This document shows positions 55,699 through 61,124 of a DNA stretch of 64,000 nt, piece by piece (position 1 is the stretch's first letter; each line of letters opens with the position of its first letter). Source of the DNA: a phage. Where the stretch lies: the sequence record PZ534511.1, one strand, 5' to 3'. The notes beneath the pieces are model-generated. The model saw only the letters and a list, made by a program, of their open reading frames with translations, searched no databases and was not told where the DNA came from. The translations under genes and the position numbers were made by a program.

Positions 55699-55798
55699 AA
55701 GCTTTACCCCTCAAAACAGTATAACAAAATAGCCCTCGTCAGAGGGCTAGTATCTCCAATTACTTTATTGTACCACATCTAATTAAGATTGGCAACAC

Positions 55799-56605
55799 TT
55801 AGATAAAACGCTTGAACATAGAAGGTGATGAGATTGATGGAATCACACAAGGAAGTGCTACCTCCTCTTTCTCCAGGAAATTAATCGCAGAAGCTACGCA
55901 GTCGGCCCAGTCGTCTTTTCTGTTAAATGTTGATCTTTCCCCGTTGAATTTTTCAAGTTCAGTCAGAAATGCTTCCAGAGTATCAGGATGGAAACTGGAT
56001 TTTACAATCCTCACCATTCCTTGTTGGGCAAGATTGGCAAAAGGTGAGAACCTTGTCAGTTTAGACTTGTTGGAAGGCATTGGGTCTTCTTCAACCCTGA
56101 ACCCTTCGGCAAGCAAGGATCTGGAGGAGGTTAAGAACTCACTCTTACCTGCCTGCCCTGGGTCCACAGAGAAGACGATTATGCAATCATCACCATCGAA
56201 CTGCGCCTGTTTCCTGATGATCACATCTCGTTCACCAGCCTTTTTACAGAACTTGCCTTCCAGACCTGTGGAATACCTCCCGTCATCCACGTTCTCAGGA
56301 CAATAATCACCGGACAGGTAATAAAAGCCGTCGCTATCTTTACTTACCTTAATACTGGCAGTAAAGTCAGGAAATTTATTACCGGAAGTTCTCTCGGTTC
56401 CTGCCTTATCCCATGCCCTGCAAGATACTGACCCAAGAGGTACTCTATCGGCATCACGAAGGAAAGATCTTTGAAAATAGTTTGCACCCTCAGGCTTTGC
56501 AAACCAGTTACCATGGAGAAGCTGAGCTTTTTCCAGCTCTGGTAGACCTTCAAGGAAAGCAAGGTATTCTGGGTTATCTCTCAGGCAGACAGGATTATCG
56601 AATCC
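55799..56605 (-). CDS. terL: Terminase large subunit, exon 3 (nuclease domain)
   Basis: Frame open from in-frame stop at 56606-56608; GFDNPVCLRD..LLHGNWFAKPEG..SVSCRAWDKAG..DDWADCVASAINFL; track ORF 55799..56290 is its 3' part. Confidence 0.7.
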   Translation of the reverse strand, partial: GFDNPVCLRDNPEYLAFLEGLPELEKAQLLHGNWFAKPEGANYFQRSFLRDADRVPLGSVSCRAWDKAGTERTSGNKFPDFTASIKVSKDSDGFYYLSGDYCPENVDDGRYSTGLEGKFCKKAGERDVIIRKQAQFDGDDCIIVFSVDPGQAGKSEFLTSSRSLLAEGFRVEEDPMPSNKSKLTRFSPFANLAQQGMVRIVKSSFHPDTLEAFLTELEKFNGERSTFNRKDDWADCVASAINFLEKEEVALPCVIPSISSPSMFKRFI

Positions 56606-57578
56606 TTATATTCAAAGGTGGTCGCAACACCACCTTCCGCACCTTTACGTGCTGCTGCATGTTACCATGCAGAGTAGACTATATCACCACCCATTTCAGG
56701 GTGCTTCGCTTTTCGAGCGCCATAAGCTTGCGCCCTACTCCCTCTCGGGATAGTCGTTGAACTACATTACCAATCGTAATTGTTTGAAATATAGGTGTAA
56801 GTCTTACGGTCTTTTATTCCTTTAACAACACTAAAACTTACTCCCCACTTCTTAGCTATTTTATTGACACACAAGACCTTATCACTAAGATCCTCGCAGA
56901 TACCTATTATCTTGTGCTCACTTATCCGATTAGAGGTTGGCACTTTTCTAAAGTTAAACTCTTTAGAAATATCTGGGTATACTGAGCCATTCTTTATACC
57001 ACTTACAAGTGGTTGATTGACACCGAACATTTCACAAATGTCTTTTACCCTTGCGCCTTGTTCTAACAGCCTACATATTTCAAGAGCAGTGGCATCATCC
57101 AGGGACCTGTATTTATTGACATAGTCCTTTTTAAGTCCCATTTCATGAGCGTGATGTGTGTTTTCCTCAGGCGTTGTCCACTCAAGGTTCCATGCGGCGT
57201 TATTCAACTTATTACCATCTAGGTGGTTTACTTGAGTTTTCACGCTGGGATTGTCATTATCAACAAAAGTCATAGCAATCACTCTGTGAACGAGCACTTG
57301 GAACTTTTTACCGTCCTCGCACAAAGTTACCATAGCATAGCCAGTCTTTTTCTGCACATTAGGATGGAGGAATTTATTAGAATACAGACTGTAAATTCTG
57401 CCATCGTATGTAGCACAATAATGATTGTAGCCTAAAAAGCCTAAATTTTTCATTTCAAACATCTCCCTACTACAGGTTCGGAAGGGTAATTATAGCTGCT
57501 GATTGTCCGTTTAGCAATCGGATTTCCCAGCAATTAACGAAGTTATTCGACGTGCATTTCTGCACGAAGCCACTATCA
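56606..57578 (-). mobile_element. Group I intron 2 in terL, with HNH endonuclease ORF
   Basis: P AATTGCTGGGAAA (~57523-57535), Q AATCAGCAGC (~57495-57504, compensatory to P), R GTTCAACGACTATCC (~56748-56762), S GATATAGTC (~56677-56685); boundaries approximate. Confidence 0.65.
56767..57462 (-). CDS. HNH homing endonuclease (HNH_3-like), intron-encoded
   Basis: NHLDGNKLNNAAWNLEWTTPEEN motif; C-terminal HTH-like region; between Q and R elements of intron 2. Confidence 0.75.
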   Translation of the reverse strand: MFEMKNLGFLGYNHYCATYDGRIYSLYSNKFLHPNVQKKTGYAMVTLCEDGKKFQVLVHRVIAMTFVDNDNPSVKTQVNHLDGNKLNNAAWNLEWTTPEENTHHAHEMGLKKDYVNKYRSLDDATALEICRLLEQGARVKDICEMFGVNQPLVSGIKNGSVYPDISKEFNFRKVPTSNRISEHKIIGICEDLSDKVLCVNKIAKKWGVSFSVVKGIKDRKTYTYISNNYDW

Positions 57579-57902
57579 TTTAATGGTTGCGCCTATAAAC
57601 GAGAATGACAACGGTCTTGGCTTGATCTCAACACCCAGTCCGTTAACCGTGGTGTATTTCTCTATCAACTCTTCTTTAGAGTCTCCCCAGATAAATTCAC
57701 CGTCGCGTCGGATAAAATATCTTTTCTTACCGCATTTCTCCGGATCTGGATACCCTTCATCGTCCAACCACCATCTAACCAGTTTGGCAAGCATGTGTTC
57801 TGAATCGGGGTTACAGCTGATAACCATTCTTGATGGATACTTTGACTGAGATCGCAGACGAGACATCAGATAGTCTATCTGCTCCCATTCGAATTGTGTC
57901 GT
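57576..57902 (-). CDS. terL: Terminase large subunit, exon 2 (ATPase C-terminal part)
   Basis: Frame open from stop near 57903-57905: TTQFEWEQIDYLMSRLRSQSKYPSRMVISCNPD; exact 3' end (5' splice site) probably just upstream of 57579. Confidence 0.55.
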   Translation of the reverse strand, partial: TTQFEWEQIDYLMSRLRSQSKYPSRMVISCNPDSEHMLAKLVRWWLDDEGYPDPEKCGKKRYFIRRDGEFIWGDSKEELIEKYTTVNGLGVEIKPRPLSFSFIGATIK

Positions 57903-58782
57903 TTATGTTCGGGCAAGGTCGCTAGTCTTGCCCCGCCATTTTCAGGCAGCTGCATGTCTCCATGCAGACCAGACTATATCTTATGAATGTGTAAATACTC
58001 TGCCGCTCTAAGAATAGTTTCCTCATCCTCTTGGAAGAAACCTAAAGCTCTGTTGCATTTATCACAAAGCAACCCTCTTACAGCACCAGTTTTATGGTCA
58101 TGATCAACACAAAAGAAATCTCTATACCCTTGCGTCCTATACTCATCAAGGGATATTCTACAAATGGCACACTTATGATCTTGATCTGAGAGTAGACGAT
58201 AGTATTCATCTTTTGTTATGTGAAATTTCTTCTCAATCTGATAAAACTTTTCACACATCTTACACCTGTTCGTAACCAGATATACTTTACCATAGTCACG
58301 TTTTGTGTAAAAACTATCAGCGAGCATACTTTCATGACAAGATTTGCATTCAAAAAGTTCACCTTTCTTCAGCAAGTCTTGAATAAACAATGCTGCGTCA
58401 TCTCTCTTAACCATATTTTTGTTTTTACGAGATCCACCCTTCCTGTAGTACATATAGCATTCCTTGCATGTACCTGAGTATCCATCCTTGCTCTTAGATG
58501 ATAAAAAGAAATCATCAATAGGTAGAACTCTTTGGCAATCCATACATTTTTTAGTATTACACATTCACCCTCCCGTTTCGAATCGCTTGATTCTACGTCT
58601 TTCGACTAGTCGTTGAACGTTCATCCTCTCGGATGCTTCGCTGCGGATTATCTAAATTAACACACTGTTACCATACCTTCGATCTCTCTTCGAAGCCTCT
58701 ATCATGTTACCATGACAGGTTGGTGGTGTCAATAATAAAGATTTCCCCGCAATTAGGGAGGTTTTACGAGAGCTACAAATTA
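57903..58782 (-). mobile_element. Group I intron 1 in terL, with HNH endonuclease ORF
   Basis: Minus-strand core elements: P AATTGCGGGGAAA (~58742-58754), Q AATCCGCAGC (~58640-58649), R GTTCAACGACTAGTC (~58604-58618), S AAGATATAGTC (~57972-57982); boundaries approximate. Confidence 0.7.
57974..58564 (-). CDS. HNH endonuclease (endonuclease VII-like) with CxxC zinc fingers, intron-encoded
   Basis: CVDHDHKTGAVRGLLCDKCNRALG motif; several CxxC pairs; between R and S elements of intron 1. Confidence 0.75.
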   Translation of the reverse strand: MCNTKKCMDCQRVLPIDDFFLSSKSKDGYSGTCKECYMYYRKGGSRKNKNMVKRDDAALFIQDLLKKGELFECKSCHESMLADSFYTKRDYGKVYLVTNRCKMCEKFYQIEKKFHITKDEYYRLLSDQDHKCAICRISLDEYRTQGYRDFFCVDHDHKTGAVRGLLCDKCNRALGFFQEDEETILRAAEYLHIHKI

Positions 58783-59208
58783 ACCCTCATCGAAGCAAAC
58801 CATGGTATACTCAAGCCCTTGATGGTTAAGCTTATCTTGTACATACTCCATGTGGCAGTATTTTACAACAGCTCCCTTTTTGCTTCTATCCCACTTGCCG
58901 GTGTTCGGATCAAACCGTGGAAAAATGAACTTATGATCCTTCTCTCTGAACTTTGGCTTAATGTTTTCAGGCAGATCACTATAAATAGCTACTGCTTTAG
59001 GCCATAGTCCACCCTCACCTTCCAACTGTGGGGTTGTTCTTCGGAACATAACCACAGAGCTGTGGGGGTCATCAATAATTTTAAGTGGCATCAATTGCAA
59101 GAGGAACGACTTGCCAGACCCTGCGGCACCGCCGATTACCAAAATATCTGCATCGTTTTCAAGGATCATCTTCTGCTTTTCAGAACACGGTCCGTAAATC
59201 TTAGACAT
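58780..59208 (-). CDS. terL: Terminase large subunit, exon 1 (ATPase N-terminal part)
   Basis: Walker A GGAAGSGKS; Walker B MVCFDE just before stop at 58780-58782, followed by intron P element. Confidence 0.75.
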   Translation of the reverse strand: MSKIYGPCSEKQKMILENDADILVIGGAAGSGKSFLLQLMPLKIIDDPHSSVVMFRRTTPQLEGEGGLWPKAVAIYSDLPENIKPKFREKDHKFIFPRFDPNTGKWDRSKKGAVVKYCHMEYVQDKLNHQGLEYTMVCFDEG

Positions 59209-59495
59209 TAACCTCTCTCCTTTGGAAACAGTGTTCTAATATAGTCTTGCAAAATGATCAATTTAGCTCTATCATTGCTACAAGACAGATTATTATCCCT
59301 CATAATGCCAGAATTCACTGCATCTGGCGCACCTTTCTTCAAAGGCATAGCTTTAGCAGGTGGTTTCATGGCACCTTCCGGGGGTTTAACAATCAACCTT
59401 CCTACATCAGGAGGGTCAATCTTGTATTCTCTCTCAACGCTGGTTGCACACCCACATAATAACAAGCACACAATAAACAGTGCAGCAACTCTCAT
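59208..59495 (-). CDS. Outer-membrane spanin (o-spanin, Rz1-like lipoprotein)
   Basis: Signal peptide with lipobox-like LLLCGC; Pro-rich mature region; overlaps i-spanin by 4 nt. Confidence 0.55.
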   Translation of the reverse strand: MRVAALFIVCLLLCGCATSVEREYKIDPPDVGRLIVKPPEGAMKPPAKAMPLKKGAPDAVNSGIMRDNNLSCSNDRAKLIILQDYIRTLFPKERG

Positions 59496-60311: not shown

Positions 60312-60388
60312 TGGTCTCCACGGAGTGATTCGAACACTCGACCTCCTGATCCCAAATCAGGCGCTCTACCAAGCTGAGCTACGCGGAG
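60312..60388 (-). tRNA. tRNA-Pro (anticodon UGG)
   Basis: Hand-folded cloverleaf: 7-bp acceptor CUCCGCG/CGUGGAG, T-loop GUUCGAAUC, anticodon loop UUUGGGA, encoded CCA. Confidence 0.7.
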
Positions 60389-60399
60389 TATTTATTATT

Positions 60400-60474
60400 T
60401 GGTGGCCCTGGGTGGAATTGAACCACCGTCTGGCGATTATGAGTCGCTTGCTTGAACCTTCCAGCTACAGGGCC
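60400..60474 (-). tRNA. tRNA-Met or Ile2 (anticodon CAU)
   Basis: Acceptor GGCCCUG/CAGGGCC, anticodon loop CUCAUAA, T-arm GGUGG-UUCAAUU-CCACC, encoded CCA. Confidence 0.65.
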
Positions 60475-60475
60475 A

Positions 60476-60551
60476 TGGTGCTGATAGCAGGACTCGAACC
60501 TGCAACCTATTGATTACAAATCAATTGCACTACCAATTGTGCTACATCAGC
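60476..60551 (-). tRNA. tRNA-Thr (anticodon UGU)
   Basis: Acceptor GCUGAUG, D-arm GCAC-AAUUGGUA-GUGC, anticodon loop UUUGUAA, T-loop UUCGAGU, CCA. Confidence 0.7.
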
Positions 60552-60556
60552 AAAAA

Positions 60557-60655
60557 GGTGCTAGGTGATGGAATCGAACCACCTATGTATTCAACGACTA
60601 CCTCGTCTATTTTCAGGATTAAAAATCCTCGCCCTTGCCAAAGGGCTTACCTAGC
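60557..60655 (-). tRNA. Atypical tRNA-like gene (about 99 nt; possible UUU anticodon; about 30-nt variable region)
   Basis: Perfect acceptor GCUAGGU/ACCUAGC, D-arm GCCC-UUUGGCAA-GGGC, T-arm GGUGG-UUCGAUU-CCAUC, but anticodon arm non-canonical and extra hairpin ACGAGGUAGUCGU; 3' CC only. Confidence 0.4.
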
Positions 60656-60753
60656 TCAGTATGTTGACCATGTTGCTAGTCGGCGATGACGACTGTAACA
60701 TTTGATAATCCGGTTCTGCTTCCGGCTTTCGCTTAATTACAAGGTCAACAATA

Positions 60754-60844
60754 TGGCTGAGGGTAATGGAATCGAACCATCATCGAGTCATCCTCAACGG
60801 GACGGTTTTCAAGACCGCTTGAGCACCATTGCTCCCTACCCTCA
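60754..60844 (-). tRNA. tRNA-Ser (anticodon UGA), long variable arm
   Basis: Acceptor UGAGGGU/ACCCUCA, anticodon loop CUUGAAA, long variable arm, T-loop UUCGAUU, CCA. Confidence 0.65.
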
Positions 60845-60958
60845 TTTATAAACAATACTGATAATGACACTGATTTTCGAGCAGTTAGTGACTAGTATAA
60901 ACGACGATAAATATCAATGCCATTATCTGTATGATTTATGCATTTAAAAATGTAAATT

Positions 60959-61045
60959 TGGTGGGGAGTGGTGGAGTCGAACCACCCGAGTCGCAATGAC
61001 AATAGATTTACAGTCTACACCGCTACCTCTACGGGATAACTCCCC
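60959..61045 (-). tRNA. tRNA-Tyr (anticodon GUA), long variable arm
   Basis: Acceptor GGGGAGU/ACUCCCC, anticodon loop CUGUAAA, T-arm GGUGG-UUCGACU-CCACC, CCA. Confidence 0.65.
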
Positions 61046-61049
61046 AATT

Positions 61050-61124
61050 TGGCACCCCGTACTGGACTCGAACCAGTGTCAACGGCTTAGAAGGCCGCTG
61101 CTTTATCCACTAAGCTAACAGGGC
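61050..61124 (-). tRNA. tRNA-Arg (anticodon UCU)
   Basis: Acceptor GCCCUGU/ACGGGGU (G-U pairs), D-arm GCUU-AGUGGAUAA-AGC, anticodon loop CUUCUAA, T-loop UUCGAGU, CCA. Confidence 0.65.

Follow-up and report, generated by a model that had tools for sequence, protein, structure and literature searches.

Two mobile group I introns of the T4 td type very probably interrupt the large terminase gene of an rV5-like Vequintavirus

The group I introns of bacteriophage T4, which reside in td, nrdB and sunY, belong to subgroup IA2; their endonuclease open reading frames (ORFs) are looped out of a peripheral helix, the introns adjoin codons for catalytic residues, and two of the three encoded endonucleases are GIY-YIG enzymes. 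A group I intron in a terminase gene was first described in the large-subunit gene (terL) of Lactobacillus phage LL-H (Mikkonen and Alatossava 1995, as cited in PMC3606486). For coliphage rV5, a section of the genome paper entitled "Introns in terminase" presents terL in three segments, one with a homing endonuclease (Kropinski et al. 2013, Virol J 10:76, PMC3606486; D. Shub is thanked there for helping to define the intron), and the RefSeq record gives the gene as a three-part join, "ORF64ABC" (rv5_gp065; NC_011041 / DQ832317), with an HNH gene inside. In the BASEL phages terL is annotated as two- and three-part joins, the genome announcement of phage LL12 mentions a terL intron (PMC6658697), and in phage CB7 splicing of the terL intron was demonstrated by reverse transcription PCR and cDNA sequencing (PMC7344957). 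Here we examine terL in a 64,000-nucleotide stretch of phage DNA (sequence record PZ534511.1, hereafter the window), where the gene occupies positions 55,799 to 59,208 on the minus strand. We conclude that it is, very probably, a Vequintavirus terL that harbours two mobile group I introns, T4-td-like and of the IA2 type, each of which would be removed by splicing.

The locus resolves into three exons and two inserts, each insert bearing one ORF. In the 5' to 3' order of the gene these are:

59208-58783, minus strand: terL exon 1, residues 1-142, with Walker A (GGAAGSGKS) and Walker B (MVCFDE); colinear with intron-less alleles
58782-57900, minus strand, 883 nt: group I intron 1, IA2-like with P7.1 and P7.2, starting UAA and with omega-G at 57900
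58564-57974, minus strand: intron-1 ORF of 196 residues, a putative homing endonuclease of the Endonuclease VII family, looped out of P8
57899-57583, minus strand: terL exon 2, residue 143 to the first two bases of codon 248, with SRMVISCNPD
57582-56604, minus strand, 979 nt: group I intron 2, IA2-like with P2, P7.1 and P7.2, starting UAA and with omega-G at 56604
57462-56767, minus strand: intron-2 ORF, an HNH homing endonuclease whose C-terminal part has a putative helix-turn-helix; it lies in the P6 loop, ending 4 nt before R
56603-55799 (stop codon included), minus strand: terL exon 3, from the final base of codon 248 to residue 515, RNase H-like nuclease, Pfam Terminase_6C

Removal in silico of 58782-57900 and 57582-56604 leaves a single ORF of 1548 nt, free of internal stops, which encodes a TerL of 515 residues with the junction-spanning peptides CFDEGTQFEWEQ and FIGATIFDNPVCLR; exon 3 contributes the motifs SVSCRAWDKAG and DDWADCVASAINFL. 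This conceptually spliced ORF aligns as one BLAST piece, over 1-1548 and at about 95-99% identity, with naturally uninterrupted Vequintavirus terL genes (pangalan, ime, FFH2, FV3, Murica and about twenty others, among the 49 full-length records listed), and both junctions are in exact register with these sister genes, base for base. Because near-identical intron-less alleles exist, the junctions can be regarded as settled. Among eight loci compared, representing every kind of occupancy, the spliced proteins differ at 0-2 residues. The protein itself is coherent only when spliced. Taken separately, the pieces give weak Pfam Terminase_6N matches (25.6 and 22.5 bits) and, for the third, a match to Terminase_6C; the spliced protein has one continuous Terminase_6N match (residues 25-294, 72 bits), followed by Terminase_6C (residues 394-489), and matches phrog_979, "terminase large subunit", over residues 1-513 (E 3.4e-208). 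The spliced product alone thus has the contiguous layout of a T4-type large terminase, an ATPase with Walker A and B and then an RNase H-like nuclease. A sequence search of the PDB with spliced TerL gave nothing meaningful (best E 0.5, a collagen adhesin).

A sequence-only reading of this DNA had proposed the same arrangement, terL in three exons split by two group I introns, and the single ORF, its colinearity with uninterrupted terminases and the covariance-model matches described below bear that proposal out. Every motif it quoted was recovered in the three minus-strand pieces. Its boundary for exon 1 stood; those for exon 2 (about 57579-57902) and exon 3 (55802-56605) were off by 2-4 nt.

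A megablast search of GenBank phages with positions 55700-59300 as query returned 159 records, the closest being vB_EcoM_HdK5 (MK373780), with 98.3% identity over the full 3.6 kb; the records that reach 90% identity are those of rV5-like Escherichia myophages, genus Vequintavirus. Judged by these sequence matches, the window is that of a Vequintavirus, an rV5-like coliphage. Its terL shares with that of rV5 the same two insertion sites and the same three exons, with no amino-acid difference in the spliced protein, an identical HNH protein in intron 2 and an intron 1 core identical at 213 of 215 positions. The two loci differ in that rV5 intron 1 is a 319-nt element without an ORF, whereas the window's has a 0.58-kb Endonuclease VII ORF in place of the tip of P8. 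Both endonuclease-bearing introns recur in HdK5, phiWec193, phiWec196 and the "Campylobacter phage" records A13b and A140-A142, which are 97.9-98.3% identical to the window over 3.6 kb and depart from it by point differences only. In the HdK5 annotation (MK373780, 593-4002) the three exons stand as separate coding sequences, hypothetical or of a terminase-like family, with no join.

Both inserts contain a group I ribozyme core, whose conserved elements lie as follows:

58754-58742 (P), 58649-58640 (Q), 58618-58607 (R) and 57982-57971 (S), minus strand: core of intron 1
57535-57523 (P), 57504-57495 (Q), 56762-56751 (R) and 56687-56676 (S), minus strand: core of intron 2

Each of the four motifs occurs once per insert and in the correct order, as had been read from the sequence; elsewhere in the 64-kb window the only comparable match was one R-like motif with 1 mismatch on the other strand, the chance expectation being about 0.1-0.3. 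With the Rfam covariance model Intron_gpI (RF00028), and an E-value threshold, intron 1 was matched over 58792-57950 (48.5 bits, E 1.7e-10), the 3' half of intron 2 over 56893-56655 (35.7 bits, E 1.1e-6) and its 5' half over 57592-57341 (19.8 bits, E 0.065). These scores fall short of the Rfam gathering score of 50 bits, because of the 0.58- and 0.73-kb ORF insertions, and a scan of the whole window at that threshold reported tRNAs alone; the whole-window scan by E-value found no further group I introns. Alleles without an ORF score far higher with the same model: 84-85 bits for the 319-nt intron 1 of rV5 and RudolfGeigy, and 95.6 and 92.7 bits for the intron 2 of RudolfGeigy (268 nt) and VB-EcoM-WM (266 nt), respectively. 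The window introns are nearly identical to these alleles outside the insertions, at 213/215 and 83-85/85 positions flanking the 0.58-kb replacement of the P8 tip in intron 1, and at 87/88 and 156/159 positions flanking the 0.73-kb replacement of the P6 tip in intron 2.

The same P/Q/R/S core is found in the T4 introns: in DNA comparisons the 3' part of intron 1 shares 82% identity with the 3' end of the T4 td intron, and intron 2 matches the core of the T4 nrdB intron. Intron 2 also resembles the SPbeta bnrdE intron (72% identity over 86% of its length, DNA). The host phages and host genes of the LL-H and SPbeta bnrdE introns are unrelated to those of the window. Unlike T4 td, nrdB and sunY, the interrupted gene is here terL and not a gene of nucleotide metabolism, and the endonucleases are of the Endonuclease VII family and of an I-HmuI-like HNH type.

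The splice sites and predicted folds agree with this assignment. In P1 of intron 1, GAGGGU+UA pairs with UAGCUCUC, so placed that the last U of exon 1 (which ends ...GAU GAG GGU) is opposite G; in P1 of intron 2, CCAU+UA pairs with UAGUGG, and the last U of exon 2 (ending ...ACC AU) is again opposite G. A U-G pair thus stands at both 5' splice sites and an omega-G at both 3' ends, as expected of group I introns. P3, P4, P7, P8 and P9 are fully paired in both, and when the ORF loops of the window introns were exchanged for GAAA, their minimum free energy (MFE) folds recovered P2 through P9.2, including P7.1 and P7.2, as well as the P6 stem that closes the HNH loop of intron 2. We read as P7.1 and P7.2 the two hairpins that these folds place between P7 and the 3' strand of P3:

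58606-58597 and 58593-58580, minus strand: P7.1/P7.2 hairpins of intron 1, GUCGAAAGAC and GAAUCAAGCGAUUC (MFE fold)
56750-56739 and 56734-56717, minus strand: P7.1/P7.2 hairpins of intron 2, UCCCGAGAGGGA and GGCGC...GGCGC (MFE fold)

The presence of P7.1 and P7.2 in this position is the mark of subgroup IA, of which T4 td is an example. Covariation adds to the structural case. P4 changes from UUGCGG/CCGCAG in intron 1 to UUGCUG/CAGCAG in intron 2 (G-C to U-A) with full pairing in both, in agreement with the compensatory change (GCGG/CCGC vs GCUG/CAGC) that the sequence-only reading had singled out, and P3 changes from CCUCCC/GGGAGG to CUUCG/CGAAG. Between the window and rV5, the sole two differences in the first 215 nt of intron 1 make up a compensatory swap of C-G to U-A at 58714/58703, within the GUAA-capped P5 extension hairpin CUGUCAUG-GUAA-CAUGAUAG; this exchange is direct evidence of selection on RNA structure.

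These features bear on the alternative that terL is a split gene, in which free-standing endonuclease genes were inserted and TerL is made as three separately translated fragments that come together again, as is reported for the NrdA that mobE splits in Aeromonas phage Aeh1. In its favour, the pieces appear as separate proteins in the output of gene callers and in some GenBank records (HdK5, SophiaRose, nomo and others), in-frame ATGs are present in exon 2, and in CB7 one HNH-associated interruption did not splice (PMC7344957). Such a history, however, would not account for complete group I cores with significant covariance-model matches in both inserts, nor for versions of the inserts without an ORF, which mean that the insert is not simply an endonuclease gene. 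Exon 3, moreover, lacks a start codon close to its 5' end (the earliest in frame is a GTG at 56290, more than 100 codons in), and the insert boundaries restore the uninterrupted allele exactly, with U-G and omega-G in place. We therefore consider a split gene most improbable. Two further candidates, group II introns and inteins excised from the protein, have in their favour only that ORFs resembling homing endonucleases lie within an essential gene. Both are excluded: an in-frame UAA opens each insert, the endonuclease ORFs are not frame-continuous with the exons, no Hint or reverse-transcriptase Pfam family was detected in the two insert ORFs (E up to 0.01), and no group II intron family appeared in the Rfam scans.

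Both ORFs within the group I introns are intact and carry nuclease domains. That of intron 1 matches Pfam PF02945 over residues 110-192 (E 2e-21; 76 bits against a cutoff of 23.6) and the endonuclease VII families of PHROG (1e-28 to 1e-33); its loop is closed by a P8 stem of 10 bp, GAAUGUGUAA (58566-58557) with UUACACAUUC (57994-57985). The ORF of intron 2 comprises 231 residues from its first ATG, or 228 from a second ATG at 57453 that has a better-placed Shine-Dalgarno sequence, GGGAG. It matches Pfam HNH_3 (28 bits; cutoff 24.8) and phrog_59 (E 1.9e-51), with weak helix-turn-helix matches at residues 119-154 that lie at or under the Pfam cutoffs, and is 100% identical to rV5 gp066; the PDX annotation describes it as I-HmuI-like. 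At 95% identity or more, the Endonuclease VII ORF is present in 30 records and the HNH ORF in 15; all copies listed are in rV5-like terL loci. Just upstream of the HNH ORF, within intron 2, we noted a sigma-70-like promoter match, TTGCTA-17 nt-TATAAT (57517-57489, minus strand), with a -10 hexamer that overlaps the 5' strand of P6. The region has 13 promoter-like sites, against 8.7 +/- 3.0 in shuffles, which is not above chance overall; the match is a weak lead only.

The Endonuclease VII ORF is closely interwoven with the intron 1 ribozyme. The 3' strand of P3, GGGAGG (58574-58569), lies 4 nt ahead of its ATG (the two together span 58574-58562) and is likely to serve as its Shine-Dalgarno sequence, and its UAG stop falls inside the S element, the 3' strand of P7 (57982-57971). 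Because the two elements coincide with P3 and S in this way, ribozyme folding and endonuclease translation in intron 1 may compete, and may even be mutually exclusive. The stop codon within the S/P7 strand, and the lower score of the ORF-containing copy relative to the ORF-less one (48.5 vs 84 bits), would also fit a different outcome, namely that the inserts are group I introns of which one, most likely intron 1, is impaired in splicing, so that terL is crippled or decaying, for example in a defective genome. We hold such a splicing-defective allele to be very unlikely, because the same architecture, with two homing endonuclease genes and ~98% identity, recurs in seven deposited phage genomes. 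Intron 1 with its Endonuclease VII ORF is present in about 30 records, plaque-forming BASEL phages among them; the core outside the ORF is 98-100% conserved, and the 10-bp P8 stem closes off the ORF loop.

Several points nevertheless weigh against the interpretation as two splicing introns. The window introns lie 1.5 and 14 bits under the Rfam gathering score, and the scores that pass it belong to alleles in other genomes. Pairing in P10 appears weak in both introns. A large ORF inside P8, with a stop codon overlapping the S element, might in principle slow folding. Splicing in this phage, finally, is what we infer from the sequence, and we found no experimental splicing data for an rV5-like coliphage in the literature.

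The introns are polymorphic in their presence or absence. Occupancy of site 1 (intron 1) and site 2 (intron 2) was judged by span length among the 49 full-length terL matches listed, which are distributed as follows:

site 1 empty, site 2 empty: 23 records
site 1 with ORF-less intron, site 2 empty: 7 records
site 1 with intron and Endonuclease VII ORF, site 2 empty: 9 records
site 1 empty, site 2 with ORF-less intron: 2 records
site 1 empty, site 2 with intron and HNH ORF: 2 records
site 1 with ORF-less intron, site 2 with ORF-less intron: 3 records
site 1 with ORF-less intron, site 2 with intron and HNH ORF: 2 records
site 1 with intron and Endonuclease VII ORF, site 2 with intron and HNH ORF: 1 record

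At least eight of the nine possible states therefore coexist, in loci whose terL exons are about 94-99% identical; the double-endonuclease state of the window is represented in the 3.6-kb megablast search by the seven records named above (HdK5, phiWec193, phiWec196 and the four "Campylobacter phage" records). Synonymous exon bases at both sites track intron presence perfectly in the nine sequences compared. At site 1 (58786-58777 / 57899-57894; a slash within the sequence marks the insertion point) the bases are GGT/ACA with the intron and GGC or GGA/ACG without it, and at site 2 (57586-57583 / 56603) ACC AT/A with the intron and ACA AT/A without it; position -1 of site 1 is T in 6/6 intron-bearing alleles, including the window's, and C or A in 4/4 empty ones. 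This correlation is consistent with the needs of P1 pairing, with co-conversion, or with empty sites that resist the endonuclease. The presence/absence polymorphism and the synonymous changes at the target sites also lend indirect support to the idea that both endonucleases may act in homing.

On the interpretation as two mobile group I introns, the primary transcript would fold into two ribozymes, and an external guanosine would bring about cleavage after the U of the U-G pair in each P1 (after 58783 and after 57583). The exons would then be ligated after the terminal omega-G (57900, 56604), and the resulting mRNA would encode the 515-residue TerL with ATPase and nuclease intact. During mixed infection both endonucleases would presumably cut intron-less terL alleles, and recombinational repair would spread the intron. 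We advance only tentatively, and with some doubt, the further proposal that the terL locus offers an unusually complete snapshot of the cycle of intron and endonuclease gain and loss, together with mutual exclusion of folding and translation in intron 1; it would be a case in which two endonuclease families, unrelated to each other, invaded separate loops (P8 and P6) of Vequintavirus terL introns. A small literature search found no paper on such a gain-loss snapshot or on folding/translation exclusivity in Vequintavirus terL, and both are extensions of known T4 biology.

Related introns occupy the corresponding positions in more distant phages. The terL of Pectobacterium phage CB7 (Certrevirus, Vequintavirinae; KY514263, 1-2457) contains a group I intron (Rfam E 4.5e-6) at the same Walker B junction, DE/G, as intron 1; it differs from the window in that it has one intron, whose ORF is of the HNH and not of the Endonuclease VII kind, and its exons are 51-61% identical in protein. 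In Salmonella phage UAB_1 (phi92-like Justusliebigvirus; OL656106, 1147-4200) a group I intron of 45.8 bits lies at a TI/FDNP junction that corresponds to the site of intron 2, and its HNH protein is 62% identical to that of the window. UAB_1 is of a different subfamily, however, its exons are 36-43% identical, and neither the terL alignment nor an Rfam scan of the locus revealed a site-1 intron.

The neighbourhood of terL contains the following features:

59890-59492: i-spanin (named as in sister genomes), upstream of terL
59495-59208: o-spanin (named as in sister genomes), upstream of terL
55698-54142: portal (named as in BASEL phages), downstream of terL
55730..55749, minus strand: terminator-like hairpin and, after it, a T run; lies downstream of terL, where the HdK5 and rV5 records give a terminator

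With the spanin genes upstream and the portal gene downstream, the surroundings fit the rV5-like genome type. The terL ATG (59208-59206) overlaps the stop codon of the upstream gene annotated as o-spanin, within ...GGTTAATGTCT... (59205-59211), an arrangement that suggests possible translational coupling, or co-transcription, of lysis and packaging genes. Just upstream of the spanin and terL genes is a cluster of seven tRNA genes (60312-61124, minus strand), comprising Pro(tgg), Met(cat), Thr(tgt), Ser(tga), Tyr(gta) and Arg(tct) together with an odd tRNA-like gene of 99 nt (60557-60655). The last has a long extra arm, scores 35.5 bits with Rfam and was left unassigned by ARAGORN (4-base "anticodon" atcc); perhaps it is a type II tRNA, either degenerate or unusual. 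Among the GenBank matches are 18 unannotated "Campylobacter phage" records labelled jejuni (MG065639-MG065690; A13b, A140-A142, C9, C11, C15 and others), whose terL, introns included, shares ~97-98% identity with that of E. coli Vequintaviruses. On that identity their host labels look doubtful, with contamination or mislabelling as possible causes.

The main value of the analysis lies in annotation. In several GenBank records, that of HdK5 included, terL is broken up into three or four proteins called "hypothetical" or "terminase-like"; the pieces carry separate annotations in SophiaRose, nomo, navn and others, and several records list "terminase large subunit (x2)". The split annotations in HdK5 and other records are annotation errors, and the splice coordinates given here permit the correct join. 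The sequence-only reading had also called it unusual for an essential packaging gene to need two splicing events, which was an overstatement, the same three-exon join being present in rV5, in BASEL phages and in the rV5 paper (PMC3606486). A two-intron terL is already annotated and published for rV5 and its relatives, and ours is a correct but ordinary finding that raises no new question: the arrangement has been in the literature on rV5 since 2013, and splicing at the homologous site was demonstrated for CB7 in 2020.

For the biology of these phages, the locus illustrates mobile group I introns that adjoin codons for critical residues of an essential gene, one immediately after the Walker B Asp-Glu and the other at the conserved ...ATIFDNP motif, with both insertion sites reused by related introns in other phage genera. 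From the sequences compared, both positions in terL look like recurrent homing sites across Vequintavirinae and Stephanstirmvirinae.

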